Assembly: GCA_018334495.1 (NCBI GenBank)
Contig: JAGXLV010000004.1
Coordinates: 5,669-69,668, forward strand
Source: Oleiphilaceae bacterium
GTDB taxonomy: Bacteria > Pseudomonadota > Gammaproteobacteria > Pseudomonadales > Oleiphilaceae
Reading direction: 5' to 3'
DNA length: 64,000 nt
Shown: in pieces, positions 4,411 to 47,964 of the stretch
Layout: each line of letters opens with the position of its first letter
Position numbering within the stretch: the stretch's first letter is position 1
The notes under the pieces: generated by a model
Told to the model about the DNA's origin: nothing
The model's database searches: none
The model's input: the letters and a program-made list of their open reading frames with translations, nothing else
Position numbers and translations under genes: made by a program

Positions 4411-4411
4411 G

Positions 4412-5677: not shown

Positions 5678-6471
5678 TGATTCTGTTCCTGCTTGTTCTG
5701 ACTGCGAACCATGGCCGCTGCCATGCGATCGATCAGCCCCTGGGGCAGTGCGGCGAAGCCCCGCAACATCCAGGTAAACCGTTTCGGAAATTGTATTTCG
5801 GATTTGCCTTTCTTGAGGCCTTTGACGATTTGCCGCGCGGCCTCATCGGCGCTGATCAAAAATGGCATGGGAAAATCGTTCCGGTCCGTCAGTGGGGTTT
5901 TGACGAAACCCGGAGACACCACGGTCACGCCTATGCCTTCGGGCGCCAGGTCGGCCCGAAGGGACTGGGCAAAATAGGTCAGGGCGGCCTTGGACGCGCC
6001 GTAACCCTCCGCCCGGCCAAAGGGGAACCACCAGGCGGATGAGCTGACTATCACCAGACGCGCCGGCAGACCCTGCCGGCGGGCGGATCTGAGCGACGGC
6101 AGCACCGCCTCGACGCTTCGGGCCGTGCCGATCACGTTGGTGTGAATATTCTTCTCGATGATGTCGCTGCTGTAATTGGCTACATCCAGGTATTCGCAGG
6201 TGCCCGCGTTCAGAATGGCGACCTGAACCGTCTTCTCGCGATCCAGTTGCTCGCGCACGGCAGCCAGATCTTCCTTGCTGGTGGTGTCGGCCCGGGCCGT
6301 GGTGACCTGCTCGCCGGCCTCCCTGGCCATGGCGTCCAGAGCTTCCTGGCGCCGACCCGTGAGGATCAGGTGATGACCCTCGTCCAGCAGGGCCCTGGCC
6401 AGGGCGTGGCCAATACCGGAGGTGGCCCCGGTCAGCCAGATTTTGACAGGCGTTTCGAAAAGTTTTGTCAT
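5674..6471 (-). CDS. SDR family oxidoreductase
   Basis: TGATSGIG, LNAG and YGASK catalytic motif. Confidence 0.92.
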   Translation of the reverse strand: MTKLFETPVKIWLTGATSGIGHALARALLDEGHHLILTGRRQEALDAMAREAGEQVTTARADTTSKEDLAAVREQLDREKTVQVAILNAGTCEYLDVANYSSDIIEKNIHTNVIGTARSVEAVLPSLRSARRQGLPARLVIVSSSAWWFPFGRAEGYGASKAALTYFAQSLRADLAPEGIGVTVVSPGFVKTPLTDRNDFPMPFLISADEAARQIVKGLKKGKSEIQFPKRFTWMLRGFAALPQGLIDRMAAAMVRSQNKQEQNQ

Positions 6472-6938
6472 GCCGCGTTTTTCCTTAGCCAGCGCACAGC
6501 ACTGCCGAGCACGGGCAGGTTCTCATAAAGTAGCTGGCCTGCATCAAAATAGTCACGGTGCAGGATGACACGGCCGTTTTCCAGGCGAAGCCGGCTGATA
6601 CCATCAACCTGAATAAGCTCGCCCCGCCGAATCCGTTTATGGCGCAGGTTCATGACCCATGTCAGACAGGCGTTGTCATCATCAATGACCGTATCGCCAA
6701 ACTCGAAACGACATTCGATTACATTGCTGTAAGCGCCCTCGAAATACTCTCGCAAGGCATCCAGGCCTTTGACGGACGTGAAAGGGTCGGTGAATTCGAT
6801 CGTCTTACCGTAAACAAGGTCAAGGTCGCCAAGATTGCGTGAACTCATCTGGTTGAACAGCTCCCGGAAACGATCCACGACTCCCTCGCAGGGTGGAATG
6901 CGGGTCGCATCAGAAGTGTCGGTTCGTGCCTGACTCAT
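6468..6938 (-). CDS. NTF2/SnoaL-like protein
   Basis: FTDPF, HRDYFDAG and LYENLPVLG motifs. Confidence 0.85.
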   Translation of the reverse strand: MSQARTDTSDATRIPPCEGVVDRFRELFNQMSSRNLGDLDLVYGKTIEFTDPFTSVKGLDALREYFEGAYSNVIECRFEFGDTVIDDDNACLTWVMNLRHKRIRRGELIQVDGISRLRLENGRVILHRDYFDAGQLLYENLPVLGSAVRWLRKNAA

Positions 6939-7885
6939 GCTCGTGTCCTTTTATCGCGATTTAGGGTTTCTTCCTGAATGTGTCGGGGCAAGGGGTTGAG
7001 CTCCCGGACAATGCCCGCTTTTTCCATTAACCAGAGCAGGTAATAGGTGATATCGATCTCATACCAGCGGAAGCCCTGGCGGGCTGATTGCGGCCAGCGG
7101 TGATGGTTGTTGTGCCAGCCTTCGCCGAGGGTGATCAGGGCCAGCCAGACGTTGTTCCGGCTGTCATCGTTGGTATCGAAGCGACGGCTGCCCCAGACAT
7201 GGGCCAGGGAGTTAATGGACACCGTGGCGTGGAAAAGGAAAACGGTGGAAATAAAGAATCCCCAGACCACCAACTGCAGCCCGTTAGTGCCGAGGCCGGG
7301 TGCCCAGGCGGCCAGGGCCTCGCCAAGGCCGAATATGGCGACAATTGCCAGAACGGGTATGAGCGCATCGAAACGATTAATGAATTTCAATTCTGGAAAT
7401 TTGAGCCAGTCCCTTACCCGGCGTTCGTCCATGGCGAAGCCGGCATCACAGGTAAACCAGCCCATATGGGCCCACCAAAAACCGTTCTGATGCGGTGAAT
7501 GCAGATCTTCCGGATCGTCGGAATGCTGATGATGATGCCGGTGGTGGGCCGCCCACCAAAGCGGTCCGCGCTGCGCTGCGCTGGCGCCCAGAATGCCGAA
7601 CAGGAGTTGCCAGATGCGATTGGTCTTGAAGGTTTTGTGTGAAAAATAACGATGGTAAAAGCCGGTTATCGCGAACATCCGGATGAAGAAAAACGCGATA
7701 GCGAACCAAACGGCGAAAGCGCTGGTCCCGGTGACCAACACCAACAGACATGCCAGGTGTAACCCGATGAAGGGCAGTACCCTGACAAAGCTGAAGGCGC
7801 GGGAATCCCTGCTGATGTGATCTGAACAGGCGTCCGAGTCGAACCACCTTCGAACGTTTGCTAAGCAACTCTGCATTCGGGTCAT
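6935..7885 (-). CDS. Acyl-CoA (delta-9 type) fatty acid desaturase
   Basis: Three His boxes (HRYFSH, HRHHH, HNNHH) and transmembrane segments. Confidence 0.93.
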   Translation of the reverse strand: MTRMQSCLANVRRWFDSDACSDHISRDSRAFSFVRVLPFIGLHLACLLVLVTGTSAFAVWFAIAFFFIRMFAITGFYHRYFSHKTFKTNRIWQLLFGILGASAAQRGPLWWAAHHRHHHQHSDDPEDLHSPHQNGFWWAHMGWFTCDAGFAMDERRVRDWLKFPELKFINRFDALIPVLAIVAIFGLGEALAAWAPGLGTNGLQLVVWGFFISTVFLFHATVSINSLAHVWGSRRFDTNDDSRNNVWLALITLGEGWHNNHHRWPQSARQGFRWYEIDITYYLLWLMEKAGIVRELNPLPRHIQEETLNRDKRTRA

Positions 7886-7920
7886 ACCCTACTTACCCTT
7901 TTTTGCCATACTTGCGGTTT

Positions 7921-7947
7921 CACGAACCGAGTTTGAAAAACTGATCA
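7921..7947 (-). promoter_or_regulatory. Candidate RpoE/ChrR (singlet-oxygen ECF sigma) promoter for the desaturase-cfa operon
   Basis: The minus strand reads TGATC-N18-CGTG, one mismatch from the TGATC-N18-CGTA consensus, and ends 36 nt upstream of the desaturase ATG. Confidence 0.45.
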
Positions 7948-7987
7948 GTGTACGTAACGCCACTCAACAATGGATGCATAAAAAACC

Positions 7988-9016
7988 ATGTTTAAGGAAT
8001 CGTCCATCAATTTGGATATACGCCGGGTCGCTATCATTGGTTCAGGCCTGTCCGGGCTGACCGCCGGTCATCGTCTCAGGGCAGCGGGTGCGGCGACACG
8101 CATCTTTGAAAAAAGTCGGGGTCCCGGTGGAAGGCTCGCTTCCAAGCGGGTGGCTGGCGGCTCCGCCGATATTGGAGCGCAATACTTTACCATCCGCAAC
8201 CCCGATTTCGGGACTTTTCTGGATCATTACGCTGGGCCCGAAACCTACCAGAGGTGGCATGGGGATTTGCGCTATCAGCGCAAGGACGGCGGTTGGGAAG
8301 GCTTTCGTCCGGAACAGCGTTATGTCGGCGTGCCACGGATGACCGCAATTGCCCGTCAGCTCGCCAGACACCTTGAGATCGTGACCGAGGTGCGGATTGA
8401 GCACCTTGCACGGCAGGACGATGGCAGCTGGGAGCTTTTTGACAGCCAGGGCGGCAGCCGTGGTCACTTCGACGCTGTCATCATCACCACGCCGCCGGCG
8501 CAAGCGAAAATGATTCTGCAAAACAGCGGCCTGGATCACTTATCCGAGAATTTTTCCAGCGACGTGAAACAAATGCACGCCTGCTGGACCCTGGCCGCGC
8601 GATTCGAGCCGGGGCTCGCTCTGGGTTACGACGGCCTGCAGGCTCAAAGCGAGATTCTGCAATGGGCGGGCAACAATTCCAGCAAGCCAGGACGGCAGGG
8701 GGCCGGTGAATGGTGGGTTCTGCATGCCCGTCCGAACTGGTCCGACGAGCATCAGGACGCGGATCCGGAAACCGTCAAAGCGACCCTGCTGGAGGCATTC
8801 TTTCAGGCCACCGGCGTGGCACGCGAGCCGGCCGACGTGCTGATACATCGCTGGCTTTACGCCCGCTCGCAGGCGCCCGATGGCCCGGGCCATCTCTGGT
8901 TTGACGATCAGCGCCTCGGCATCATTGGTGACTGGCTGAGCGGGGGGCGCGTGGAAGGCGCGTTTAACAGCGCCGAAAGCCTGATTGCCGGATGGCAAAA
9001 GCAAGAAATTATTTAG
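7988..9016 (+). CDS. Renalase-family NAD(P)/FAD-dependent oxidoreductase
   Basis: GSGLSG, EKSRGPGGRLASKR, DIGAQYFT, HRWLYA and GDWLSGGRVEGA motifs. Confidence 0.9.
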   Translation: MFKESSINLDIRRVAIIGSGLSGLTAGHRLRAAGAATRIFEKSRGPGGRLASKRVAGGSADIGAQYFTIRNPDFGTFLDHYAGPETYQRWHGDLRYQRKDGGWEGFRPEQRYVGVPRMTAIARQLARHLEIVTEVRIEHLARQDDGSWELFDSQGGSRGHFDAVIITTPPAQAKMILQNSGLDHLSENFSSDVKQMHACWTLAARFEPGLALGYDGLQAQSEILQWAGNNSSKPGRQGAGEWWVLHARPNWSDEHQDADPETVKATLLEAFFQATGVAREPADVLIHRWLYARSQAPDGPGHLWFDDQRLGIIGDWLSGGRVEGAFNSAESLIAGWQKQEII

Positions 9017-10478
9017 TGTTTCGCACAAGTTCCGGCCGATGGTAGAAATGCGTAATGGTGCCGTCTCCGAATTTGGTGAAAAAGGCGCTGACCTCGGTGA
9101 TCCGCCGCAACTGGCGGGTCCGGGTGACCGGGTCCCGGATCAATACCTTGATACCGTTGAAGTTGTCCTGGATATTCGAAAACCGGGCCTTCATGGAACA
9201 GGTGACCACGTCGTTCGGATTGAGCCTTAACGCTTCCGCCAGATAGGCGCCATGAGCCCTGATGCCGTCAGTCAGCAGATCCTCACGGGTGTCCAGATGA
9301 TCCAGTTTTATCCGGTCGACAATGCATTTCGAGTAACTCTGGGGGTTGCGCCGGGCAAACCGTCGGAAGGCTTCCCAGAAAAAACTGTCGGTCAGTTCCG
9401 CGAAGTGGTGCATGTCACTCAGGCAGGTGTCCACCCAGTCAAAGGTGTCGGCGTCGTCCAGCACCTCATTAATCGCCTCCCGCAGCAACCAGTCAAAGCC
9501 CAGCGCCGTTTTGTGGGCATAGACCTTGCGATACATCTGGTAGCGGCTGTAGACGAAATCCTCCAGTGCTCCGAGGCCTTTCTGGGTAATGGCCAGTCCT
9601 AGCCAGGGCTGTTCCACATTCCAGCCGAAACGCAGGTTGCTCAGCAGGTGGTCGAGATTGAAGCCGCCGATCGTGACCGAAGAGTGGAAGCCATCCCGAA
9701 GCATGTAATCAGCGCGGTCGGCGTCTATCTCGCCGGAAACGATCGAAGACAACAGGTCCATGACCAGACCCGGCGTCGAGGTTTCACTGAGAGCGCCGGA
9801 TTCGGCGTCGTCGCCCGCTATAAAGGCCCAGAAAGTCCGCGCGTGCCGACAAAACGCCTGGCTCGGAGTCACTTCCGTGGTTTCCATGATGCCGAGCACG
9901 TCTTCCAGAAAAAGCCCGGCCTCGTCCAGATTAACGGATGTCAGTACATCGTAAGCCACCCGAACCGAGTAGTGTTCATGCTCCAGCTCGGTTGCCCGGT
10001 GAGGGTAAAAACGGGTGTAGTCCACGCCTTGCCAAAGATCGTCAAAGCGGCTGGGGTGGGCCATGAGTTCCTGAATACGCCTGACCTGGGTGAACTGGTG
10101 GGAAAAGCTCGAATGGCCGCTGTCGTGCAGGAGACAGCCGAGGCGAATGATCTTGGCGAAATAGTCAATGGCGTCGAGCTGGGTGAGGCTCAGGTCCGAT
10201 TGCTCGCTGAGCTTGCGCTCCCGCAAATAGGCGTCGATCATCGCCCGGAACATACGCCCGCCGACATGCATGACGCCAATGCTGTGGAGAAAACGGGAGT
10301 GGGTTGCGCCGGGAAAAACCAGACTCAGGATGTCGTTCTGACAAATATTTCTCAGACGCTGGAACAGGGGATGGTCGATGACCTGAATTTCGTGCCGATA
10401 CAGTGGAATACCACCGTGCACCGGGTCCATAATCAGCTTGTCGTAGGCGCCCAGTAGATCATTGACAGCACTTCGCAC
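9009..10478 (-). CDS. HD-superfamily phosphohydrolase (SAMHD1/COG1078-like)
   Basis: DPVHG, FQRLR, HSRFLHSIG, LLHDSGH and IDADRADYMLRD motifs; GTG start. Confidence 0.88.
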   Translation of the reverse strand: MRSAVNDLLGAYDKLIMDPVHGGIPLYRHEIQVIDHPLFQRLRNICQNDILSLVFPGATHSRFLHSIGVMHVGGRMFRAMIDAYLRERKLSEQSDLSLTQLDAIDYFAKIIRLGCLLHDSGHSSFSHQFTQVRRIQELMAHPSRFDDLWQGVDYTRFYPHRATELEHEHYSVRVAYDVLTSVNLDEAGLFLEDVLGIMETTEVTPSQAFCRHARTFWAFIAGDDAESGALSETSTPGLVMDLLSSIVSGEIDADRADYMLRDGFHSSVTIGGFNLDHLLSNLRFGWNVEQPWLGLAITQKGLGALEDFVYSRYQMYRKVYAHKTALGFDWLLREAINEVLDDADTFDWVDTCLSDMHHFAELTDSFFWEAFRRFARRNPQSYSKCIVDRIKLDHLDTREDLLTDGIRAHGAYLAEALRLNPNDVVTCSMKARFSNIQDNFNGIKVLIRDPVTRTRQLRRITEVSAFFTKFGDGTITHFYHRPELVRNTK

Positions 10479-33247: not shown

Positions 33248-33449
33248 TATTAAATCCACGTAAGTAGTCGGTTTTATTATAAAAATCTGGCGACATCTCA
33301 AGTCATGAAAATAAGTATAACAGCCTCCGATTCATTTACAATCAGTTACAGTCATAAATAATACTGGTTTGTGAGGGTGAGTCTTAATGCAGGCCCAGGT
33401 CAGAAGGGGGGAGTGATCTGACCCGGGAATTTCCGGGTTTTTTGTTCTA

Positions 33450-34550
33450 TTACCAGCTTTCGCGGACCGCCTGAACAACTCTGTCGACCTGCTCCCGGCT
33501 CATTTCCGGGTAGATTGGCAAGGAGAGGCAACGGGCGGTCACTGATTCGGCCACCGGCAGCTTATGGCTGTGGTACTCCTCCGGTAGGGCTTGCTGTCGA
33601 TAGGCCGGCAAGGCGTAGTGGATGGCGGAGGCAATGCCCTGTTCCGACAGGTGGTGCCTGATTGTCTCACGAACCTGTTCCGGAACCAGAATCGTAAACT
33701 GGTGGTACACATGATCACCACCGGCATTCACCGTTGGCGCCTCAATACCGCTGACGTCCCCCAGGCCTTCACGGTACCAGTCGGCCACCTGGCGTCTGGC
33801 CCGGTTGCATTCGTGAACATGGTTAAGCTTGATGCGCAGAATGGCCGCCTGCATGGAATCCAGCCGGCTGTTGTAGCCGATGATCTTGTGATGATTCCGC
33901 TCATTGCTGCCATGGCTGCAAAGTAGCCGGAGCTTGTCGGCAAGTTCTGGCGAGTGGGTGGTCATCAGGCCGCCGTCACCACAGGCGCCCAGATTTTTGG
34001 TGGGGAAAAAACTGAAGCAGCCTACATCGCCGAATGTGCCGGTAAAGTCCGCGCCGTGTCTCGCGCCAAAGGATTGAGCGCAGTCTTCGACGACATGCAG
34101 GTGATGTTTTTTGGCAAGAGGCATGAGCTGGTCCATCGCCGCCGGCTGACCAAAGATATGCACCGGTACAATTGCGCGGGTGGCCGGCGTGACGGCTTCT
34201 TCCAGCTGGCTCACGTCGATATTGAAGGTGTGAGGGTCAATGTCGACGAATACGGGCTTTGCGCCGACATAAAAAATGGCCTCCACAGTGGCAAAGTAGG
34301 TGAAGGGGGTCGTAATGACCTCATCGCCCGGGCCAATGTCCAGAGCGCGCAACGCCATGTGGAGCGCGTCTGTGCCCGAGGCGCAGCTTATGGCGTAAGG
34401 TGCGCCTAAAAAAGTAGCGGCCTCTTTTTCGAAACCCTGGACATGCGGCCCGCCTACGAATTGGCCGGTCGCAACGATATCCTTGAGTGCATTGGCAATA
34501 TCTTCCTGCAGGGCCGTATGACCCGCTGCAATATCGACCATCGGTATCAT
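33450..34550 (-). CDS. gnnB: DegT/DnrJ/EryC1/StrS PLP aminotransferase, GnnB-like
   Basis: SGTDAL, EDCAQ, SFFPTKNLG (PLP Lys) and GYNSRLD motifs; third gene of the lpxA-oxidoreductase-aminotransferase trio. Confidence 0.7.
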   Translation of the reverse strand: MIPMVDIAAGHTALQEDIANALKDIVATGQFVGGPHVQGFEKEAATFLGAPYAISCASGTDALHMALRALDIGPGDEVITTPFTYFATVEAIFYVGAKPVFVDIDPHTFNIDVSQLEEAVTPATRAIVPVHIFGQPAAMDQLMPLAKKHHLHVVEDCAQSFGARHGADFTGTFGDVGCFSFFPTKNLGACGDGGLMTTHSPELADKLRLLCSHGSNERNHHKIIGYNSRLDSMQAAILRIKLNHVHECNRARRQVADWYREGLGDVSGIEAPTVNAGGDHVYHQFTILVPEQVRETIRHHLSEQGIASAIHYALPAYRQQALPEEYHSHKLPVAESVTARCLSLPIYPEMSREQVDRVVQAVRESW

Positions 34551-34566
34551 CTGTTTTATCTCCGGT

Positions 34567-35544
34567 TCAGGTAAGTTTTACGTTAGTGGGGCTCACTGGC
34601 GGGGACTCTTTCTTTACTTGCGCGATGACCGCAGTGGCCATTTCCAATGCGCGCAAACCATCCTCACCACTGACAACTGGCGGGCGGCCTTCCAGGACGC
34701 TGTTGGCAAACGCGCGTATCTCGCTTTCCAGAGCGTCAATGTTGTCCAGAACCAGAGTTTCACTCTCAATATCGGGTATGCCGGGGAACATCATTTCTTT
34801 ATTGGATTTGCGCCGCACTTCCAGGCGACGCTCGGACATGTCCGCCGAGAAGTAGGCATCGCTCTGGAAAAGCCGCATGCGCCTTTCCTGTTTCAGGCTG
34901 ATTCGGCTGGCAGTGACATTGGCGACACAGCCATTGGCGAAAAGTACGCGGGCGTTGGCAATGTCGATCGCTGACGATAAGACTTGGCTGCCGCTGGCGT
35001 CGATACGCTCGACTGGGGACTTGACCAGATCCAGGATAAGATCAATGTCGTGAATCATCAGGTCAAGCACCACATCTACATCCATCGCACGGGTGTTAAA
35101 AGGTGCGATGCGGTGGGATTCAATAAAAATCGGAGTCTGGATGCGTTTTGCCAGTTCCTGCATGACGGGGTTGAATCGCTCCAGGTGACCGACCTGGAGC
35201 ACACAATCCTGGTCCCGGGCCAACTGGATCAGATGTTTTGCTTCGGTGGGGGTGGTGGTGATCGGTTTTTCCACCAGGACGTGGATTCCCGCTTCCAGAA
35301 GATCCCGAACCACCGTGTAGTGATGGGATGTCGGGACCACCACACTGGCAACGTCAACCTGACCGATCAAATCCCGATGACTGCCACAGACTTGAGCGCC
35401 GTTTGCCTCAGCAACCGCGGCGGCTCGTTCCGGGTCAGGATCAACCACAAAGACAAGATTTGTTTGATTCAGTGCGGCGTATTTTTGAGCATGAAATTTA
35501 CCCAGGTGCCCTACACCTACGACAGCAGCTCGAAGCTGATTCAT
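34567..35544 (-). CDS. gnnA: Gfo/Idh/MocA NAD-dependent oxidoreductase, GnnA-like
   Basis: GVGHLG, VEKP, VGHLERFNP, DLMIHDID and VANVTASRIS motifs; overlaps the lpxA stop (ATGA). Confidence 0.72.
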   Translation of the reverse strand: MNQLRAAVVGVGHLGKFHAQKYAALNQTNLVFVVDPDPERAAAVAEANGAQVCGSHRDLIGQVDVASVVVPTSHHYTVVRDLLEAGIHVLVEKPITTTPTEAKHLIQLARDQDCVLQVGHLERFNPVMQELAKRIQTPIFIESHRIAPFNTRAMDVDVVLDLMIHDIDLILDLVKSPVERIDASGSQVLSSAIDIANARVLFANGCVANVTASRISLKQERRMRLFQSDAYFSADMSERRLEVRRKSNKEMMFPGIPDIESETLVLDNIDALESEIRAFANSVLEGRPPVVSGEDGLRALEMATAVIAQVKKESPPVSPTNVKLT

Positions 35545-36329
35545 CGGCTAAATCCCCGTTTCGATGGTTGCATGAAATTCAAGAGTTCTTTGACCGCCGC
35601 AGACTGGGGGGCCTCCGATAACTGACGTATGGCTTCGGCCAGTGGCAGCCCCGAGCGGTAAAGTATTTTATAGGCGCGTTTAAGGTCCGCGATGCCGTCG
35701 GCGTCGAAACCGGCTCGCTGCAGGCCCCGGCGATTAAGGCCAAACAATTTCGCGCTGTTGCCGTTGGCAAGCATGAAAGGGGGGATGTCCCGTAGGACAA
35801 TGCTGCCGCCGCCGATCATGGCAAGGCGCCCAATTCGGGTAAACTGATGGATCGCCACTGTCCCTGCGATGTTAGCGCGATCCTCAACCACGACATGGCC
35901 GCCTACATTGACGCAATTGGCCATGATTACGTTATCGCCAATAATACAATCATGACCCACATGACTCTGGACCATGAACAGGTTGTCGTTACCAACGGTG
36001 GTCAGGGCCCGGTCTTTGGGCGTGCCCCGGTGAATCGAAACAAATTCCCGGATGGTGTTGCGGTCACCAATTTCCAGGCGGGTTTCTTCGCCCCGGTAGC
36101 CCAGGTCTTGCGGAGCGTCGCCCAGGGAAACGTGCGCATGAATACGATTGTCGCGGCCGATACGGGTCGGCCCGTTAATGACAGCATGGGGGCCGATGCT
36201 TGTTCCGGATTCGATCTCCACTCCGGCCCCGATAATGGCGTAAGGGCCCACGGATACGTCGTCCGCAAGTCTTGCCGCAGGGTCTATGATGGCACTTGCG
36301 TGTATCTCAGCTTGTTGTTTATTATTCAT
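35541..36329 (-). CDS. lpxA: Acyl-ACP--UDP-N-acetylglucosamine acyltransferase
   Basis: Hexapeptide repeats, IREFVSIHRGT, HVGHDC catalytic His, HQF, and the C-terminal GLNRRGLQRAGF helical domain. Confidence 0.92.
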   Translation of the reverse strand: MNNKQQAEIHASAIIDPAARLADDVSVGPYAIIGAGVEIESGTSIGPHAVINGPTRIGRDNRIHAHVSLGDAPQDLGYRGEETRLEIGDRNTIREFVSIHRGTPKDRALTTVGNDNLFMVQSHVGHDCIIGDNVIMANCVNVGGHVVVEDRANIAGTVAIHQFTRIGRLAMIGGGSIVLRDIPPFMLANGNSAKLFGLNRRGLQRAGFDADGIADLKRAYKILYRSGLPLAEAIRQLSEAPQSAAVKELLNFMQPSKRGFSR

Positions 36330-36705
36330 TTCACAGGCTCGTCATTGAACGTCAAAGTTGTTTGATACTTACGGCGATTCTGGCTTGAGTCGGATTGATC
36401 CCATCGGGTCTGCGAATATCAGGATTGTCGCACAGTTCAAATGTCTCCGTCTTTATCTTACGGTCTCGCGAGAACCCGCCCCGCCCGGTGTCCAATAACA
36501 GTATTTCCGGGACTTCGGATGGGTTTTCAGTGGCTAAGGCTGGTAAACTGCCAGGCGCTCCTACTTTGAAGGCTGACGCCTTGTAAAAGTCGCCTGGTAT
36601 TTGGTTAACAAGCCGTCACGGAAATACCCCAAGAAACAGGCACAGGCATCGCAACGCTGTGCTAACGTCTGCATCTGTTCCATTTGCTAAAAGTTGATTG
36701 TGTCG

Positions 36706-37500
36706 ATGAGTAATCCCAAACATACCCTCTTCTGGATGACGCTGTTTCTGGGGGTGGTGCTGGCCGTTTGTGTTTTGATCCATGCGCCTCTGACAACTGC
36801 CTTCATGGCGAACTGGGTTTTTAACCTTCTGATTGTGTCTGTTTTGCTGATTGGTATCGGTTTAACCTACCGGCAGGTGTTTGTACTCTTTCCCGAAATG
36901 CGTTGGATTGCCCAGTTCAGAACAGGGCATGCGGGTCTGTCTGTCTTGCAAGAGCCCCATCTTTTAAAGCCACTTGCCAGGCAACTGGGTGACGATTACA
37001 AGCGCGACCAATTCTCCCTCTCGACCATGTCATTGCGTACGGTTCTCGACGGTATCCACAGTCGCATGGATGAACAGCGCGAAATCACCCGTTACTTTAT
37101 CAGTCTTCTGGTGTTTCTGGGCCTGTTGGGTACTTTCTGGGGCTTGCTGGGAACCATCAATGCTGTCGGCGGTGTCATTACCGGCCTCGATATGGGGCAG
37201 GGTGATTTCGCAGACGTCTTCGCCGAATTGCAATCCGGGCTTTTGACACCGCTGGAGGGTATGGGCACCGCCTTCAGTTCCTCCCTGCTGGGGCTCGGCG
37301 GGTCACTGATTCTGGGGTTTCTGGATATTCAGGCCGGCCACGCCCAGAACCGTTTCTACGATGGCCTGGAAGAGTGGCTGACAGGGGTAACGCACCTGGT
37401 CGATACGGTGGACAAGGTGGACACCCGGAAAGACGACGATCTTGCCCGCGTCCTGGAGGAAAATCAGGCATTGAAAGTTCAACTTGCCAGCAAGGAGTAA
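36706..37500 (+). CDS. MotA/TolQ/ExbB-type proton-channel protein (non-flagellar)
   Basis: Four TM segments with LGLLGTFWGL and GMGTAFSSSLLG; start moved to the ATG at 36706. Confidence 0.75.
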   Translation: MSNPKHTLFWMTLFLGVVLAVCVLIHAPLTTAFMANWVFNLLIVSVLLIGIGLTYRQVFVLFPEMRWIAQFRTGHAGLSVLQEPHLLKPLARQLGDDYKRDQFSLSTMSLRTVLDGIHSRMDEQREITRYFISLLVFLGLLGTFWGLLGTINAVGGVITGLDMGQGDFADVFAELQSGLLTPLEGMGTAFSSSLLGLGGSLILGFLDIQAGHAQNRFYDGLEEWLTGVTHLVDTVDKVDTRKDDDLARVLEENQALKVQLASKE

Positions 37501-37533
37501 TAATGCGATGAGCAAGTTGAAGAGTGATCATTC

Positions 37534-38601
37534 ATGATCGGATCAAGACGCCGAACGAAAAGTAACATCAATGTCTGGCCGGGCTACGTGGACGCCCTGT
37601 CGGCTTTGTTGATGCTGGTTATCTTCATGCTGCTGATCTATGTGGTCAGCCAGCTTTACCTCTCCCAGACCCTGTCGGATCGCAACAGCGAATTGGCTCG
37701 CCTCAACACCCGGCTTGCTGAAATATCCCGACTTCTCGGGCTTGAGCAGGAAAAAACCGACGCATTGCAACAGGAAATGGTGTCGGTGCAGGACAATTAC
37801 AGCGACAGTCTGGCTCTCAACGATATGTTGGGCGCTGAATTGGACGAAAAAAACGAACAGTTGCGAGCCCAGCAATTCGACGCCGAGGCCCAGGCACTGA
37901 GAATCGAGGACCTGAACGAAGCCGCAGGAGAGGCGCAACAGACCCTGGATGAGGAACAGCTGCTTTCTTTTGAACAGCAAACCCTGATCACGCGTTTGTC
38001 CAATCAGATATCGGCACTGCAGAAGCAGCTCGGCCAGATTACCGCGGCATTGCGCCTGCAGAAGGATCTTACTGCCGAGAAGGACGCGGAGCTGCAGCGG
38101 GTAGGTAAGCGCCTGAACACCCTGTTGGCCGAACGGGTGAATCAGCTCGAACGCTATCAGTCCGAGTTTTTCGGACGTCTCAGGGAGATTCTGTCCGACA
38201 ATGAAAACGTCCGGATTGTTGGCGACCGCTTCCTGCTGCCCTCGGAGCTTTTGTTTGCCTCCGCCTCGGCAAGCCTCGGCCCTGCGGGCAAAGTTGAACT
38301 CGACAAGCTGGCCAGGGTATTACTGAACGTCGTGGAGGAAATCCCCGACGATATTGAATGGATTCTGCGTATCGACGGACACACCGATCTCATTCCCATC
38401 AATACAGCCGAATTCCCGTCGAACTGGGAGCTTTCCACTGCACGGGCAGTCGCGGTTGTGCGCTACCTGTCAGAGCAGGGTGTGCCCGACAAGCGTATGG
38501 TAGCTGCGGGCTTTGGTGAGTTTTTCCCCGTTGCGCAGGGCAATTCGGCACAGGCGCTGCAAAAAAACCGGCGGATTGAACTCAAACTGACTGACCGCTA
38601 A
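37534..38601 (+). CDS. MotB/OmpA-type peptidoglycan-binding protein with long coiled coil
   Basis: WPGYVDAL TM segment with the conserved Asp, about 170 aa of coiled coil, then RIDGHTD, NWELSTARA and NRRIELK. Confidence 0.82.
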   Translation: MIGSRRRTKSNINVWPGYVDALSALLMLVIFMLLIYVVSQLYLSQTLSDRNSELARLNTRLAEISRLLGLEQEKTDALQQEMVSVQDNYSDSLALNDMLGAELDEKNEQLRAQQFDAEAQALRIEDLNEAAGEAQQTLDEEQLLSFEQQTLITRLSNQISALQKQLGQITAALRLQKDLTAEKDAELQRVGKRLNTLLAERVNQLERYQSEFFGRLREILSDNENVRIVGDRFLLPSELLFASASASLGPAGKVELDKLARVLLNVVEEIPDDIEWILRIDGHTDLIPINTAEFPSNWELSTARAVAVVRYLSEQGVPDKRMVAAGFGEFFPVAQGNSAQALQKNRRIELKLTDR

Positions 38602-41514: not shown

Positions 41515-42981
41515 CTAGCAGGTCGGCATGGTCTGTAGAGCCAGTTTGCGTCTGATAAAACGCGAAAGGGCATCGATGCCGATGTTCAGCATTGCCGTGA
41601 TAAGAATCAGGATCATTGCCCGGTCAAACCGGATATCCTGAATCGCACTGTCGATGTAGAAGCCCAGCGTGGCGATGCCCAGAATCCCCAGAATCGCCGT
41701 TTCGCGCATGATGATTTCCCATCGGTAGAACAGAAACGCAAGAAAGGAGCGGTAAACTCTCGGCGTCAGTTCGTAGGAATAACGGTTCAGGCCTACTGGC
41801 GCATCGGCCCGTAATTTAATGCCACTGCTCTGACGGCCGATCAGATGCCCGATAATGCCGCCGTTATGAAGGGCCAGGGCCACCGCTGCCGGCAACATGG
41901 AGGGGCCCCACAACTGCAAAAGGATATAGGCGAGGATGTATTCCGGCGTCGACCGCGCGACCACCAGAAACACATTGCCGAAGATACGCCGAATCGGCCC
42001 GCCAAAATGTGTGGATATCAGGGGAAATGCGGCCAGTGCGATCAGACCGGTGGTCACCAGGGCGATCTGGGTCAGGATAAGGGTATTCCAGATTCCCGGC
42101 AGCGCCGAATGCACCATGAGATCACCAAACCAGCTCATGAGGCTGCCAAAACCTTCACTGTTTCGAATCGGGCTCGGAACTATGTCTTCGGTAAAGAAGC
42201 GGGTGACATTGCCCCAGACAATAGGCATACCGTCCCCCAGGAAAAACGGCGCCGACAGAACATAGACTGGCAAAAGTTTGGGCCGGACCCAGATCGGTAT
42301 GGTGGCAATGAGCACATAAAATACCAGTAAAAGCGCGCCAGCCTCGGAATAGTGTGTCTGCGAAAATGCACTCTCAAGATAAAAGCCCATGGTGGGCAAG
42401 CCGACAAAGCCCAGGATGGCGCTGGAGCGCAGGCCGCACTCCAGCCGATAGGATGTATAAGTGCGTAGCTGTAGCCAGCAGTCCGGTACGCGGGCGAAGA
42501 AGAACGCCGATACGATACCCGTGCCGAACGGCAACAGCTTCCGGGGTTCCGGGTCGGCCTCGTCCAGAATTTCCGAATACACTTTGGCAAAAATACCGGC
42601 GTAGGGAATGGCAATGGCCAGGACGCCCGTTAATGGATGGAAGCCGAAAAATTGCAGAAAAATGAGCGCCCAGAAAAGCTCGTGAATAGCGCGAATGAAG
42701 GCGCAGAAAAGCCGCACGGCACGAAAACGGTAAACCAGTGACAGCAGAAAACCACTAAGACTGCCGAGCGCAACGCCGGTAAAGGCAAAGGCCACTGTGC
42801 GAAGCACGGCGGTATACAGGCCTTCAATACTCAGGAAATCGGGCGTCACCATGCCCATGAAAAAGCGCCCGAGATCAAGCCAGGGATTGGTTGCAGTTAT
42901 TGCCATATCGGCGAACAGGAGGCAGCCGAACGCTATGGCGATAAACAGGAAGCTGACACGGACAGTGGGGGACGAAGGCAT
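41515..42981 (-). CDS. PhnE/PtxC-like double-domain ABC permease (putative selenate uptake)
   Basis: RAIHEL.WAL, AIAIPYAG.FAKVYSEILDE, ECGLRSSAILG and WEIIMRETAILG motifs; true start at the ATG at 42981. Confidence 0.85.
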   Translation of the reverse strand: MPSSPTVRVSFLFIAIAFGCLLFADMAITATNPWLDLGRFFMGMVTPDFLSIEGLYTAVLRTVAFAFTGVALGSLSGFLLSLVYRFRAVRLFCAFIRAIHELFWALIFLQFFGFHPLTGVLAIAIPYAGIFAKVYSEILDEADPEPRKLLPFGTGIVSAFFFARVPDCWLQLRTYTSYRLECGLRSSAILGFVGLPTMGFYLESAFSQTHYSEAGALLLVFYVLIATIPIWVRPKLLPVYVLSAPFFLGDGMPIVWGNVTRFFTEDIVPSPIRNSEGFGSLMSWFGDLMVHSALPGIWNTLILTQIALVTTGLIALAAFPLISTHFGGPIRRIFGNVFLVVARSTPEYILAYILLQLWGPSMLPAAVALALHNGGIIGHLIGRQSSGIKLRADAPVGLNRYSYELTPRVYRSFLAFLFYRWEIIMRETAILGILGIATLGFYIDSAIQDIRFDRAMILILITAMLNIGIDALSRFIRRKLALQTMPTC

Positions 42982-42988
42982 GGTTCGC

Positions 42989-43642
42989 TCAGTACAGCGG
43001 TAGAATGTCGGTCTCGGACAGGCGCTCGCTGGGCTCATCGAGTGCCACCTGGCCATCGAGAATACCGACGATGCGATCACTGTATCTGAGCGCCAGTTCG
43101 ACATCGTGCAAGGCGATAACGGAGGTGCCAAAGGATTCCCGCAAAAGCCCCATGACGACATGGGCGAGAGGACCGTCCAGAGCCGATACTGGCTCATCGG
43201 CCAACAACACGGGCGCGCGACTGTAGATCCCCCGGGCGATGGCTGTGCGCTGGCGCTGGCCCCCGGAAAGACTCGCCACTGGCGACCACTGTTTTTCACC
43301 AATGCCAAGCTGGCCCAGCAATGGCTCTATTTCGTCACGGTCCCGCTTGAACGGCTTTACCAGGGTGGCCAGGTTGTACCAGCTCGAACGCTCGTTGAGC
43401 CGGCCCATGAAAACGTTATGAAATACAGATAACGACTGCACCAGCCCGAGTTCCTGGGGAACATAGGCCACCGGGCCCAAGGCCTCCTGGTACAACAGAC
43501 GTATCAGGGTCGACTTGCCCGCACCGCTTTTCCCGACCAGAGCAATGCGCTCACCTGGCTCAACCGAAAGGGAAAGGGGCCCAAGGACCCGCTTCCCGCC
43601 AAAGGAGGCCGTAATGCCATAAAGCTGTAGTGCTGTCATCAA
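42989..43642 (-). CDS. PhnC-like ABC ATP-binding protein
   Basis: GKSGAGKS, LSGGQRQR and LLADEP motifs. Confidence 0.9.
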   Translation of the reverse strand: MMTALQLYGITASFGGKRVLGPLSLSVEPGERIALVGKSGAGKSTLIRLLYQEALGPVAYVPQELGLVQSLSVFHNVFMGRLNERSSWYNLATLVKPFKRDRDEIEPLLGQLGIGEKQWSPVASLSGGQRQRTAIARGIYSRAPVLLADEPVSALDGPLAHVVMGLLRESFGTSVIALHDVELALRYSDRIVGILDGQVALDEPSERLSETDILPLY

Positions 43643-44511
43643 TCCAGAATTCCTACTTCTTCACCGACCTTCTGGATGGGCTCGTAATCGTCGTTGGACG
43701 CGGGGATGAAGGATGAGCGCGGAAAGCTGTTCAGCAGTTCCTTGTCCTCAAGGTTCAGCAGCGCATCGGTGACGCGTTGTTTGAAGCCTTCACCGAACCG
43801 GTCATCGACACCGGCGCGGATGGTCCACTGGTAATTGGGGTAGGGCGGAGTCGTCCAGATGATACTGACCTCGTCGGTATCGATGTTGTCGTTCGCCAAC
43901 TCCTTCTCCCAGACTTTGAAATTAATGGCCCCGGTTTCATAGGTGCCGGACTCCACGAGCCTCAACGTACGTGTATGGTTACCGCTGTACCCGACGCGTG
44001 AAAAGACGTCATCAGGCGACTCGCCAAAAGCCTCGCGAATATGGAATTCCGGCATCAGGCGGCCGGATGTGGAGCCCTTGGAGCCGAAGGTGAAGGTTTT
44101 ACCCCGCAATTCTTCGGAGAGCTCATCCATGGGTTCCAGACTGGTGCTTTTGTGAGCGATGAAATGGGACACAAAATTAGAGGCGTCTTCGGTACCCTGG
44201 GCGATGGCTTCGGAACCCGGCACCAGGTTTCGTGCCTGAACGCCGGACAGACCGCCAAACCAGGCCAGCTGAACCTGGTTGTTGCGGAACGCCGAGATGG
44301 CCGCAGCGTAGGATTTCACCGGAATGTAGCGCACCTCCACGTCCAGCTCCTCTGAAAGGTAGTCCGCCATGCCACGGAAACGTTCGATCAGCTTGGTTTC
44401 ATCTTCGTCCGGAATCGCCGTGAAAATGAAAGTTTCCGCTGCGAGGGGCATACTGGCCAGGGTCACGGCGCCCAGTGCGCCAATCATGCTTTTTTTCAAT
44501 TTGGTAAACAT
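43639..44511 (-). CDS. Putative selenate ABC transporter substrate-binding protein (PhnD-like)
   Basis: Signal peptide; FTAIPD, AWFGGLSGVQAR and FGSKGSTSGRLMP match the family usually found beside selD/senB. Confidence 0.82.
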   Translation of the reverse strand: MFTKLKKSMIGALGAVTLASMPLAAETFIFTAIPDEDETKLIERFRGMADYLSEELDVEVRYIPVKSYAAAISAFRNNQVQLAWFGGLSGVQARNLVPGSEAIAQGTEDASNFVSHFIAHKSTSLEPMDELSEELRGKTFTFGSKGSTSGRLMPEFHIREAFGESPDDVFSRVGYSGNHTRTLRLVESGTYETGAINFKVWEKELANDNIDTDEVSIIWTTPPYPNYQWTIRAGVDDRFGEGFKQRVTDALLNLEDKELLNSFPRSSFIPASNDDYEPIQKVGEEVGILD

Positions 44512-44743: not shown

Positions 44744-45733
44744 ATGAAACTGATCCTGATGACGCCTGCACCGCCAGGCTCCAAAGCCGGAAACAGAGCC
44801 ACAGCGGAACGCTGGGCAGCCCTGTTGCACGAGGCCGGCCACGACATTGATATTCTTACCGAATATCACGGTCAGGCGGCGGACGCCATGATCGCACTGC
44901 ACGCCTGGCGTAGCCACGATGCCATTATGGCCTTCCGCCAGGAACACCCGAAGGCGCCGATGATTACGGTTCTGGCCGGCACCGACGTGTACCGTTTTCA
45001 GCACAGCCATCCGGACGAAACCCTGGCGTCCATGGCAGCCAGTCATGTTCTGATCGGGCTTCACCGGGAGGTTGCACAGGATATTCCCGCCAGACTCCAC
45101 GACCGGCTGGCCATCGTGCTGCAATCTGCCGACGTTCCCCCGCGTGATTTACCGGCGGCAAGAAAAGATAACCGGTACTTTGATGTCTGTGTCATCGGTC
45201 ACTTGCGCGAAGAAAAAGACCCGCTGCGCGCGGCCTACGCTTCTCGGTTGTTGCCCACCGACTCGAACATTCGCATCCTCCAGGCAGGCAAGGCCCATAA
45301 CGAAGACTGGTCCGAGGCTGCCCGATGTGAAGAACGGGAAAATTCCCGTTACCAATGGCTGGGCGAACTCGGTAAAGAGGCCACCCAGGCATTGATGATT
45401 CAGTCAGACGCCATGGTCATCAGCTCGGTGATGGAGGGTGGCGCCAATGTCGTTTCCGAAGCCTGCCGCGCTGGCCTGCCGGTCATCGCCTCGGATATCG
45501 CCGGCAATCGTGGGCTGCTTGGCAAGCAATATCCCGGATACTTCGCCGTCCGCAACGATGCCGCTCTCGCCCATTTGCTGTTGCGTGCCGAAACCGAATC
45601 GGATTTCCTGCAGGCACTGCGTCGGCACGTTGAAAGCGAAGCGGCCAATTTCACCCCCGCCATGGAGCAAAAAGCCCTGTTGGCGGCGCTGAATCAGGCC
45701 TTCAGAACAATTGGTTCAATCGCTTCGCCCTGA
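44744..45733 (+). CDS. senB: Selenosugar synthase SenB (selenoneine-pathway glycosyltransferase)
   Basis: GNRATAERWA, MIALHAWRSH, VLAGTDVY, GHLREEKDP, SSVMEGGANV.SEA and YPGYF motifs; adjacent to selD. Confidence 0.85.
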   Translation: MKLILMTPAPPGSKAGNRATAERWAALLHEAGHDIDILTEYHGQAADAMIALHAWRSHDAIMAFRQEHPKAPMITVLAGTDVYRFQHSHPDETLASMAASHVLIGLHREVAQDIPARLHDRLAIVLQSADVPPRDLPAARKDNRYFDVCVIGHLREEKDPLRAAYASRLLPTDSNIRILQAGKAHNEDWSEAARCEERENSRYQWLGELGKEATQALMIQSDAMVISSVMEGGANVVSEACRAGLPVIASDIAGNRGLLGKQYPGYFAVRNDAALAHLLLRAETESDFLQALRRHVESEAANFTPAMEQKALLAALNQAFRTIGSIASP

Positions 45734-47964
45734 GGCAGAATGCGGCCAATGATCGCGGTCTCCGGGTAACCCAGCGCCTTGAGTTCCGCAACACAGGCGT
45801 CAGCCTTGTCCGCCGGTATGCTGGCCAGCAGGCCGCCCGCTGTCTGCGGGTCGAATATCAGCGGATAGCGTTCGTTATTGATCCATTCATCCTGGTTACG
45901 TATGCCGCGGCGAAGGCGTATGTTCGCGGGCTGAAGCGAGCTCAGGATGCCTGCCGCCGCCGTTTCCTCGGCACCCGGAAGAATCGGAATGGACGACAGC
46001 GAGAGCTCGGCGTCAACGCCGGAGGGCCGCGTCATCTCCACAAGGTGCCCAAGCAGGCCAAAGCCCGTGACGTCGGTACAGGCGCGCGAACCAAAACGGC
46101 TCAGGCACTCCGCAGCCGTCTTGTTGGACTGCATCATGGATTCCAGCGCCGAATCGATCCAGCGGCCCCGAGCCTTTAGCTGGGCGTGAGCAGCGAAGAG
46201 CGTTCCGGTGCCGATGGGTTTGGTCAACAGCAGAACGTCACCCGCCACCAGACCGCCTTTGCTCATGACTTTGTCCGGATCAATGTAGCCATTGACGGCA
46301 AAGCCCAGGGCCAGCTCCCGACCCTCACCGGTATGGCCGCCCACCAGGGCGCAGCCCGCCTCATTGAGCACATCCACAGCACCGGACATCATCTGGAAGA
46401 CGATGTCCTCGACCTTGGATTCGATACCGTAGGGCACGGTCGCCACTGCCGTTGCGCTCTGCGCGTGAGCGCCCATGGCAAACACGTCCCCCAGGCTGTG
46501 ATTGGCAGCCACCCGGCCAAAAACATAAGGATCATCGATAAAGGCACGGAAAAAGTCCACGGTATGAACCACGGCCTTGCCTGGCGGAACCGTCAAAACC
46601 GCGGCGTCGTCGGGGGCGTGCAGGCCGACGAGAATGTCGTCGCGCTCGATGGGCTTAAGGTTGGCTAGGGCCCGGGACAGAACAGTACTGCCGACCTTGG
46701 CGCCGCAGCCGCCGCAACGCATGGCGACAGCGGAGATGGCCTGGGCGGCTTCCTCGGGGTTCTGGGCGGCGGAAGTGTCGGGCAGGTTGCCTGTATCTGC
46801 CATTGCCGGGAGGTCGTTGAACTTCGACATGAATTGATGATCAATCCAGTCTTTCCAGTGCCACACCAGTTTGCCTGCGATGGCGAAGTCACCTCTTGAT
46901 GCGACCGCGAATTTGTCGCCGGTGCTGATCAGTGCCAGCCATTTTTTCTGGGGCTTGAACGGCTTTGCTTTGCGGCCCGTGGCGACACGTTTGAGATTGT
47001 CAGCCAGAGGACGGCCCTGGCGTACTGCAAACACGCCGGCTTTTTCGCGCGGGTGGTCGATCACATTGGCGATATCCCCCGCGGCAAAAATCCTGTCGTC
47101 GGTTTCCGTTTGCAGGGTGTCTCTAGTCAGAATAAAACCGTCGTCATCCAGCGCCAGCCCTGTTTTCTGGAGCCATTCCGGACCGCCGGCCCGGGTTACC
47201 CAAAGCACTTCGTCTGCATCCAGAATTTCGCCTGACTCGGTGGTTAACCGCTGCGCGTCAACATGGGTAACGGGCGCTCCCAGGTGAAGTCGGACCCCTC
47301 GTTCATGGAGCGTTTTTTCGAATTGCTGGCGAACCTTGTCGTTATGGGTTGGAAGCAGCTGGGGTGCGGCGTCGAACAAGTGGAAAGACAGCCTGCCCGG
47401 ATCGCCACCACGCTTGCTGATCTCCTCCCGCAGACGGTGCTGCATGGCCAGAGTCAGCTCCACACCGCCGGCACCAGCACCAACAACGGCCACAGTCATC
47501 GGGCCCTGATGATTCTCCAGCCTGGATAACAGCGCTACCCAACGGTCATTGAACCCCTGAATGGGCTTGACCGGTACGGCGTGATCCCGGGCGCCCGGCA
47601 CGTCCTGGACACGCGGGGCGGAGCCGATGTTGATGGACAGAAGATCGTAAGGCACCGAGGGCCGGTTCCGGCAATCCACCCGTTGCTCCGACCGGTTGAT
47701 CGCAACGGCTTCGTCGCGGTAGAAACGGGCACCAGCGAACTCCGCCAGTCGGCTGAGATCAATGTGAACTTCGTCATAACTGTAATGCCCGGCCACATAG
47801 CCGGGCAGCATGCCGGAGTAGGGCGTATGGGTATCCCGGCAGATCAGGGTCAGGCGCACGCCGAGCACGGGATTCATGGCAAAGCGTTTGAGAACACCTA
47901 CGTGACTGTGGCCTCCGCCAATGAGGACAATGTCACGTAGGACTGGCTGTTCGGATGTCTGCAT
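45694..47964 (-). CDS. selD: Selenide,water dikinase fused to an N-terminal FAD/pyridine-nucleotide oxidoreductase domain
   Basis: N-terminal GGGHSH, YSGMLPG and KAGVFAVRQG; C-terminal MRCGGCGAKV, DDAAV, TVDFF, TDVTGFGLLGH and DPQTAGGLL. Confidence 0.92.
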   Translation of the reverse strand: MQTSEQPVLRDIVLIGGGHSHVGVLKRFAMNPVLGVRLTLICRDTHTPYSGMLPGYVAGHYSYDEVHIDLSRLAEFAGARFYRDEAVAINRSEQRVDCRNRPSVPYDLLSINIGSAPRVQDVPGARDHAVPVKPIQGFNDRWVALLSRLENHQGPMTVAVVGAGAGGVELTLAMQHRLREEISKRGGDPGRLSFHLFDAAPQLLPTHNDKVRQQFEKTLHERGVRLHLGAPVTHVDAQRLTTESGEILDADEVLWVTRAGGPEWLQKTGLALDDDGFILTRDTLQTETDDRIFAAGDIANVIDHPREKAGVFAVRQGRPLADNLKRVATGRKAKPFKPQKKWLALISTGDKFAVASRGDFAIAGKLVWHWKDWIDHQFMSKFNDLPAMADTGNLPDTSAAQNPEEAAQAISAVAMRCGGCGAKVGSTVLSRALANLKPIERDDILVGLHAPDDAAVLTVPPGKAVVHTVDFFRAFIDDPYVFGRVAANHSLGDVFAMGAHAQSATAVATVPYGIESKVEDIVFQMMSGAVDVLNEAGCALVGGHTGEGRELALGFAVNGYIDPDKVMSKGGLVAGDVLLLTKPIGTGTLFAAHAQLKARGRWIDSALESMMQSNKTAAECLSRFGSRACTDVTGFGLLGHLVEMTRPSGVDAELSLSSIPILPGAEETAAAGILSSLQPANIRLRRGIRNQDEWINNERYPLIFDPQTAGGLLASIPADKADACVAELKALGYPETAIIGRILPQGEAIEPIVLKA

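Follow-up and report, generated by a model that had tools for sequence, protein, structure and literature searches.

We analysed a 64,000-nucleotide stretch of DNA from an Oleiphilaceae bacterium (GenBank assembly GCA_018334495.1, contig JAGXLV010000004.1, positions 5,669 to 69,668), referred to below as the window. On its minus strand lie three closely packed genes: a paralogue of lpxA (lpxA2), a gene for an oxidoreductase of the Gfo/Idh/MocA family, and a gene for a DegT-family aminotransferase (Table 1). A first-pass annotation, made from the sequence alone, had described them as a tight operon standing apart from fabZ, lpxD and lpxB. The coordinates, the ATGA overlap of the first two genes and the 16-nt gap before the third were all as it had given them. 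When E. coli and Acidithiobacillus references were compared by blastp with all open reading frames (ORFs) of the window, no homologue of FabZ, LpxD or LpxB was found in the 64 kb. Nor was a second lpxA visible within the window. The ATGA overlap is read here as translational coupling. It was present at the lpxA/gnnA junction in ten of the ten loci compared, Acidithiobacillus among them; because this ATGA-joined arrangement recurs in at least ten independent loci, the grouping of the trio is not a matter of chance.

Table 1. Features of the lpxA2-gnnA-gnnB locus (positions within the window)
Feature	Position	Strand	Length	Basis
lpxA paralogue (lpxA2), acyl-ACP--UDP-GlcNAc(3N) acyltransferase	35541..36329	-	262 aa	ORF coordinates, family profiles
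gnnA-type UDP-GlcNAc 3''-dehydrogenase (Gfo/Idh/MocA)	34567..35544	-	325 aa	profiles, 7bvj match
gnnB-type pyridoxal-phosphate (PLP)-dependent UDP-3-keto-GlcNAc aminotransferase (DegT family)	33450..34550	-	366 aa	PF01041, GnnB comparison
ATGA stop/start overlap, lpxA2/gnnA	35541..35544	-		read directly in sequence
16-nt spacer accggagataaaacag with GGAG ribosome-binding site, gnnA to gnnB	34551..34566	-	16 nt	read directly
G+C-rich palindromic hairpin, 11 nt past the gnnB stop	33420..33439	.		terminator-like site from scan
Intergenic region 5' of lpxA2, common to the divergent motA-like gene; presumed promoter region	36330..36693	-	364 bp	

Assignment of the three genes

LpxA2 scores above the cutoffs of both NCBIfam equivalog models for LpxA (NF003657, 358 bits for a cutoff of 226; TIGR01852, 331 bits for a cutoff of 231), and its PF00132 hexapeptide repeats are followed by the LpxA-specific C-terminal domain PF13720, which places it within the LpxA family. 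No identical record was found for the exact protein of the window. The best database matches share 75% (a JGI contig), 66% (Marinobacter sp.) and 64% (Alkalilimnicola sp. S0819) identity with it, followed by a tail at 51–62%.

The oxidoreductase (PF01408 and PF22725, GFO_IDH_MocA) has a single close relative of known structure, 7bvj/7bvk (E 6e-64), the next match in the PDB being a myo-inositol dehydrogenase at 5e-21. The 7bvj sequence, rebuilt from the printed alignment, is 99% identical to Acidithiobacillus proteins, and in Acidithiobacillus contigs its gene directly follows lpxA, in the order bamA-skp-lpxD-fabZ-lpxA, this gene, a DegT gene and lpxB-rnhB-dnaE. We take 7bvj to be GnnA as described by Manissorn et al. 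(2020), which the place of its gene next to lpxA supports. The window’s protein is 41% identical to the product of the Acidithiobacillus gene that follows lpxA and retains the EKP (at 92) and HDIDL motifs. With this fold, this tie to the Acidithiobacillus enzyme and a gene immediately 3' of lpxA, it belongs with GnnA, as had been proposed. It is related to the archaeal UDP-N-acetylglucosamine (UDP-GlcNAc) 3-dehydrogenases of model NF040723 without being an equivalog member (188 bits, cutoff 450). Homologues at 55–62% identity are frequent among Ectothiorhodospira, Thioalkalivibrio, Methylococcus, Thiohalomonas and related groups of the Gammaproteobacteria; above 70% identity, about seven clusters were found in 5.8 billion proteins, two of them labelled Marinobacter, so that the cassette seems confined to a small sub-lineage.

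The aminotransferase matches PF01041 (DegT_DnrJ_EryC1) at 416 bits and carries the lysine that forms the PLP Schiff base (K185, within FFPTKNLG). Among proteins of known structure the top match is 7b0d, and the best identified relatives are the sugar C3-aminotransferases DesV, WbpE and QdtB. Scored on a single blastp scale, its identity is 47% (338 bits) with Acidithiobacillus GnnB and 41% (280 bits) with WbpE. The first-pass reading of the gene as gnnB thus stands, its product being a C3-aminotransferase with GnnB somewhat the nearer of the two. The assignment to gnnB draws on this modest sequence preference, and context supplies the rest: the gene adjoins gnnA, no wbpA, wbpD or wbpI is nearby, and the ATGA junction is conserved.

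The same pair of reactions, 3-oxidation followed by 3-transamination of a UDP-sugar, is carried out by WbpB/WbpE of Pseudomonas aeruginosa and WlbA/WlbC of Bordetella on the route to the ManNAc3NAcA of O-antigen. Those enzymes act on UDP-GlcNAcA, and their genes stand beside those for WbpA, WbpD and WbpI. Were the window’s pair to serve an O-antigen or capsule pathway of this kind, yielding UDP-GlcNAc3NAc(A) sugars, the LpxA-like protein would be unrelated to it or a generic N-acyltransferase. The strength of the match between WbpE and the aminotransferase (E 1.6e-84) is in keeping with such a pathway, as is the sub-threshold match of the archaeal dehydrogenase model to the oxidoreductase. However, no chain named WbpB or WlbA appeared among the PDB matches to the oxidoreductase, and 3q2i and 3q2k, which we take to be WlbA, matched at only about 1e-8 to 1e-9, far from the level of the Acidithiobacillus enzyme. 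Neither WbpA, WbpD, WbpI nor other polysaccharide genes flank the trio; its neighbours are instead motA-like, ompA-like, globin-like, PPK2 and DUF302 genes. LpxA2 itself is a full LpxA, complete with the C-terminal domain that binds acyl carrier protein (ACP), and its coupling to gnnA is kept at every locus compared. The O-antigen assignment was rejected.

The nearest known counterpart in gene order is the lpxA-gnnA-gnnB group of Acidithiobacillus ferrooxidans, reportedly described by Sweet, Ribeiro and Raetz (2004, J Biol Chem 279:25400) with a companion paper, work cited in PMC8036547 and PMC3342949. That the order matches, as the first-pass annotation had stated, was borne out by fetched Acidithiobacillus contigs (bamA-skp-lpxD-fabZ-lpxA-gnnA-gnnB-lpxB). 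The two loci also share the ATGA overlap, and their LpxA, GnnA and GnnB proteins are 50, 41 and 47% identical. They differ in setting: in Acidithiobacillus the three genes form part of the housekeeping cluster lpxD-fabZ-lpxA-gnnA-gnnB-lpxB and supply the single lpxA, whereas in the window it is detached, lies between unrelated genes, and encodes an LpxA of a separate clade.

A separate LpxA clade, found beside canonical LpxA on two contigs

We placed LpxA2 in a neighbour-joining tree, a simple distance tree, of 134 LpxAs. It falls in a clade with the LpxAs of Marinobacter sp. CP085217.1 (locus L001), L003, L020, Alkalilimnicola (L002) and Kineobactrum sediminis (match P0092, locus L025), and with one of the two LpxAs of L018. 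The other L018 protein groups separately with canonical LpxAs, including those of E. coli, Nitrincola and Methylocalor. Bootstrap support for the LpxA2 clade was 77%, and a split keeping the whole clade free of canonical gammaproteobacterial LpxA appeared in 96% of replicates. A grouping of the clade with Acidithiobacillus LpxA was not supported (bootstrap 16–20%).

Ten distinct genomic contexts of the clade were examined (the window, L001, L002, L003, L018/L019, L020/L021, L025, L106, L107 and L108). In all ten, gnnA lies directly 3' of lpxA, and in eight gnnB is present as well. The surroundings vary greatly among them, a pattern suggestive of repeated insertion, and the clade is not congruent with the taxonomy of its hosts (Marinobacter, Kineobactrum, Alkalilimnicola and Ectothiorhodospiraceae). 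At the locus of Alkalilimnicola sp. S0819 (L002, 1531-4524), a fabV-type enoyl-ACP reductase gene precedes and overlaps the cassette lpxA, and gnnA is followed by no adjacent gnnB, the aminotransferase being encoded elsewhere or missing.

Aligned with the E. coli enzyme, whose numbering is used here, LpxA2 keeps Q73, D74, H99, H122, H125, H144, H160, Q161, N198 and R204. The catalytic H125 and Q73, D74, H122, H144, H160, Q161, N198 and R204 are in fact retained throughout the clade (37 members), with one D74E as the sole exception. Three other positions are changed in LpxA2: E200 to arginine, R205 to alanine and K76 to glycine, QDLG replacing Q73-D74-L75-K76. Lys76, typical of canonical UDP-GlcNAc O-acyltransferases, is therefore absent from the protein. 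In the E. coli product complex, the N-zeta of K76 contacts the ring oxygen of glucosamine at 3.0 A, and O4 of uracil is bound by R205 (PMC6286764). A published table of pocket residues gives Asp69-Leu70-Gly71 for Leptospira interrogans LpxA, with glycine at the position of E. coli Lys76, and gives lysine there for the LpxAs of E. coli, P. aeruginosa, A. baumannii, H. pylori and B. fragilis (PMC7072397). The Leptospira protein is thus like LpxA2 at this position and likewise keeps the catalytic histidine and other active-site residues, although it is the more distant relative (207 bits vs. 248–264 for proteobacterial LpxAs). The Acidithiobacillus LpxA also reads QDLG in our alignment. Both the L. 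interrogans and the A. ferrooxidans enzymes are reported to prefer the 3-amino sugar nucleotide UDP-GlcNAc3N (Sweet 2004; Robins 2009). For Leptospira LpxA (PDB 3HSQ; Robins, Williams and Raetz 2009) this selectivity was reportedly measured, whereas for LpxA2 we infer it from the shared glycine at position 76 and the linkage to gnnA in all ten contexts.

The changes are characteristic of the clade when its 37 members are set against 79 canonical gammaproteobacterial LpxAs. Position 76 is never lysine in the cassette clade (G 21, S 8, A 5, other 3), compared with 74 lysines in the canonical set. At position 200, arginine or lysine occupies all 37 cassette proteins, vs. E in 47, V in 14 and R in 11 of the canonical ones. 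Alanine replaces R205 in 29 members (canonical: R 60), and the acyl-chain ruler at position 173 is glycine in 35 (canonical: M 49). A metagenome sample of 80 LpxA loci, retrieved regardless of gnnA, gave a similar picture: gnnA was present within 4.5 kb at four of the seven loci lacking K76 vs. four of the 73 bearing it (Fisher p = 0.0014, uncorrected for relatedness). In tandem lpxA pairs of Endomicrobiellum, only the copy adjoining gnnB-gnnA is without K76. These loci (L008-L013, metagenome-assembled genomes (MAGs) of Candidatus Endomicrobiellum, at about 5060-9700 in each) comprise lpxD-fabZ, tandem lpxA-lpxA, a gnnB-like gene, a gnnA-like gene and lpxB. Lys76 is retained by the first LpxA of each pair and replaced by Ser or Asn in the second. 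This is an independent case of two LpxAs, in the Elusimicrobiota.

Two contigs carry both kinds of LpxA. In an Ectothiorhodospiraceae MAG (L018/L019), bamA-skp-fabZ-lpxA-lpxB-rnhB lie on one strand, and lpxA-gnnA-gnnB stands between rnhB and dnaE on the opposite strand. On L108, bamA-skp-fabZ-lpxA-lpxB converges with a cassette lpxA-gnnA. The canonical lpxA of L108 is split, and since rseP and dxr on the same contig are split too, we attribute this to indel errors and not to decay. The canonical copies of both have QDKK, a Met or Phe ruler and Glu200; the cassette copies lack Lys76 and have a Gly ruler and Arg or Lys at position 200. Together with the separate clade, these contigs strengthen the earlier proposal that the window’s gene is an accessory second lpxA. 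In addition, only one named Marinobacter LpxA was present among the best 120 matches to LpxA2, which weakly suggests that the usual LpxA of Marinobacter is another protein, of the canonical kind. A scan of genome contigs with query-specific patterns returned mostly distant phyla and one partial Marinobacter MAG contig, and a cluster look-up of ten canonical-looking LpxA matches yielded no Marinobacter names.

A further arrangement was seen in Ectothiorhodospira sp. BSL-9 (L024, CP011994.1), in which about 3.3 kb separate a gnnA-gnnB-lpxB unit from lpxD-fabZ-lpxA. Its single visible LpxA has QDIG but a Met ruler. The organisation looks like a third type, intermediate between that of Acidithiobacillus and the detached cassette.

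Genomic surroundings and relatives of the locus

The window was found at 0.95 of sampled words in a salt-lake metagenome run (X1), with weaker presence in other salt-lake, marine and soil metagenomes. Independent Logan contigs of X1 tile 30–40 kb in order and unbroken at 16–28x; the cassette is therefore not an assembly chimera, and its flanks are contiguous with it. Among named genomes, that of Marinobacter sp. CP085217.1 comes closest; it carries the same trio in the same place, with the motA-like/ompA-like pair on one side and the globin-like gene on the other. Identities between the window and this genome are 66, 78 and 66% for LpxA, GnnA and GnnB, 85% for the MotA-like and 74% for the OmpA-like protein, 82–90% for an ABC transporter, and 56–57% for two small flanking genes. 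Another syntenic copy, L003, is nearer in the trio (LpxA/GnnA/GnnB 75/87/82% to the window), and further ones were found on L020/L021 and in the Marinobacter MAG L016. Because flanks and trio are syntenic with these loci, the label “Marinobacter-like” given to the genome by the first-pass annotation is fair; it is reasonable but indirect.

Upstream of the trio, a divergent motA/exbB-like gene is followed by a gene for a peptidoglycan-binding (OmpA-domain) protein of the PRK09039 type. This plus-strand pair (36694-38601) encodes a weakly matching MotA/ExbB-like membrane protein of 268 aa and a coiled-coil OmpA-domain protein of 355 aa (PRK09039, 390 bits); it adjoins the cassette in the window, L001 and L020/L021, and does not do so in Kineobactrum or the Ectothiorhodospiraceae. 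Downstream are globin-like, PPK2 and DUF302 genes. The hairpin beyond gnnB likely marks the end of the operon; its T-run is on the plus strand, so a role on the minus strand would be conjectural. In the presumed promoter region, the scan called no sigma-70 consensus on the minus strand. A stretch at about 36411-36441 of that strand, 5' of lpxA2 (TTTGAACTGTGCGACAATCCTGATATTCGCA), is partly kept in L001 and L020 (TTTG-TGTGACAAT...GAT) and may be a promoter or operator.

The remainder of the window is of a housekeeping character (xthA, a cfa cluster, gpsA, etfAB, cydDC, recQ, lnt-like and trkH genes). The cassette has the same G+C content as its surroundings (about 0.53–0.55), so that composition shows no sign of recent transfer. 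A tblastn search of PLSDB gave no sign of carriage on plasmids: every match was under 60% identity, and most were canonical lpxA genes of mislabelled chromosomes or chromids.

Several other genes of the window deserve mention. A 756-aa protein encoded at 45694-47964 (-) fuses a pyridine-nucleotide-disulfide oxidoreductase domain to a SelD-like (selenide, water dikinase) domain, a known fusion type (TIGR03169, 511 bits for a cutoff of 310; TIGR04369, 473 bits, below its cutoff of 700). A cyclopropane-fatty-acid synthase gene grouped with short-chain dehydrogenase/reductase (SDR), amine-oxidase-like and desaturase-like genes at 2246-7885 (-) constitutes a second membrane-lipid-modifying cluster. 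A 597-aa membrane-protein ORF at 41515-43308 (-), whose start codon is uncertain, gave no Pfam match at 1e-8; it adjoins a gene for a phosphonate-type periplasmic binding protein (43639-44511) and is probably a fused ABC permease.

Proposed function and alternative explanations

We consider it likely that the three genes are a single operon by which lipid A synthesis gains a UDP-GlcNAc3N branch, as an accessory cassette in a Marinobacter-like lineage. GnnA, using NAD, would oxidise UDP-GlcNAc at C3'', and GnnB, using PLP, would transaminate the 3-keto intermediate to UDP-2-acetamido-3-amino-2,3-dideoxyglucose (UDP-GlcNAc3N). The co-translated LpxA2 would then move an R-3-hydroxyacyl chain from ACP to the 3-amine, creating an amide bond, and the acylated product would enter the Raetz pathway (LpxC, LpxD, LpxH, LpxB etc.). 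The resulting lipid A would contain 2,3-diaminoglucose (GlcN3N) in one or both backbone positions: with a canonical LpxA alongside, a mixed GlcN/GlcN3N backbone is expected; with none, an all-amide one. The detached cassette was most likely gained horizontally and probably operates alongside a canonical lpxA linked to fabZ. A further difference between the two LpxAs may lie in the length of the acyl chain that they transfer, given the Gly ruler of LpxA2 and the Met or Phe of the canonical copies on the two-copy contigs; the glycine would suggest a longer chain than that of Met-type canonical enzymes.

There are precedents for both halves of this proposal. It is established that GnnA/GnnB and GlcN3N lipid A occur in Acidithiobacillus, Leptospira, Campylobacter, Legionella, rhizobia and further bacteria (PMC8036547). 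In Capnocytophaga canimorsus, lpxA, lpxA' and gnnA/gnnB have been proposed to explain a hybrid GlcN3N-GlcN lipid A (PMC3342949). This case resembles an accessory role for LpxA2 in that two LpxA paralogues plus GnnA/GnnB would give a mixed backbone. It differs in that this member of the Bacteroidota has lpxA, lpxA', lpxC and lpxD in one operon with gnnA/gnnB dispersed, and in that its lipid A was determined chemically, whereas that of the window’s bacterium is predicted from genes. Psychrobacter cryohalolentis K5 has two LpxA homologues, a duplication within the Pseudomonadales; unlike in the window, no link to gnnA/gnnB or GlcN3N is reported with it (PMC4113819).

Several points weigh against the accessory-operon proposal. 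Accessory status is extrapolated, for the window’s genome and CP085217.1 alike, from two contigs of other bacteria. The function of every member of the LpxA2 clade, and the lipid A of its carriers, are predictions from sequence comparison, and the transcription search placed the stretch in no RNA run. What the loss of K76 offers is a correlation within a set of related sequences, and it is not an established determinant of selectivity; five LpxAs adjacent to gnnA (L014, L032, L047, L076 and L098) keep this lysine, although these may be dual-substrate enzymes. The phylogeny comes from a simple distance tree, in which union of the LpxA2 clade with the Acidithiobacillus protein reached only 16–20% bootstrap. 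Finally, the preference of the aminotransferase for GnnB over WbpE is modest.

The alternative that survives best retains the same chemistry but makes LpxA2 the sole LpxA, the canonical fabZ-linked copy having been lost or displaced, so that the lipid A would be all-amide GlcN3N-GlcN3N, as in Acidithiobacillus or Leptospira. The single K76-less LpxA of Acidithiobacillus provides a model for this, as does Ectothiorhodospira sp. BSL-9, with one QDIG LpxA in its fabZ cluster and gnnA-gnnB-lpxB nearby, and the 64 kb disclose no further lpxA. We nonetheless think it unlikely: clade members sit beside a canonical copy on two contigs, the departure of the clade from host taxonomy points to an added xenologue, and the lone named Marinobacter protein among the best 120 matches weakly suggests a separate canonical enzyme.

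LpxA2 could instead be an ordinary O-acyltransferase duplicate that differs in acyl-chain length only, its linkage to gnnA and gnnB having no bearing on the sugar substrate. The ruler residue is indeed systematically G in the clade vs. M in many canonical gammaproteobacterial LpxAs, and selectivity need not be strict, as the E. coli enzyme accepts either sugar nucleotide. Yet chain length by itself explains neither the conserved translational coupling to gnnA nor the remodelling of three positions that contact the sugar nucleotide (76, 200 and 205), and we regard this explanation as very improbable. The O-antigen/capsule pathway discussed above is the most improbable of the alternatives.

Returning to the accessory operon, a wider proposal can be put forward tentatively: the trio may be a horizontally mobile “backbone-switch” cassette. 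It would unite an amine-specific LpxA lineage (loss of K76, E200 to R/K, R205 to A) with GnnA/GnnB, at at least five chromosomal sites in the Gammaproteobacteria (Marinobacter-like, Kineobactrum, Alkalilimnicola, Ectothiorhodospiraceae and others), coexisting with canonical LpxA. Such hosts could make two kinds of precursor differing in linkage (amide vs. ester) and in chain length (Gly vs. Met ruler), possibly conditionally in saline or alkaline habitats, and position 76 would serve as a predictor of selectivity.

The biochemistry is not new, as the pathway, a selective LpxA and the occurrence of gnnA/gnnB alongside two lpxA genes have all been described. A literature search found no report of a GlcN3N pathway in Marinobacter, and literature searches found no description of the three genes as a detached cassette that has an LpxA lineage to itself. 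What is mildly new is the genomic organisation, together with a testable sequence marker; the finding extends known chemistry, credibly but modestly, to a group new to it. If the proposal is correct, amide-linked GlcN3N lipid A would occur in a Marinobacter-like halophile and in the cultured gammaproteobacteria Kineobactrum sediminis and Alkalilimnicola sp. S0819, and the three-gene cassette would be a recognisable flag for genomes likely to make hybrid lipid A. Both kinds of LpxA currently share one name, “UDP-N-acetylglucosamine O-acyltransferase”; loss of Lys76 is a candidate annotation marker by which UDP-GlcNAc3N-using LpxAs may be separated from ordinary ones.

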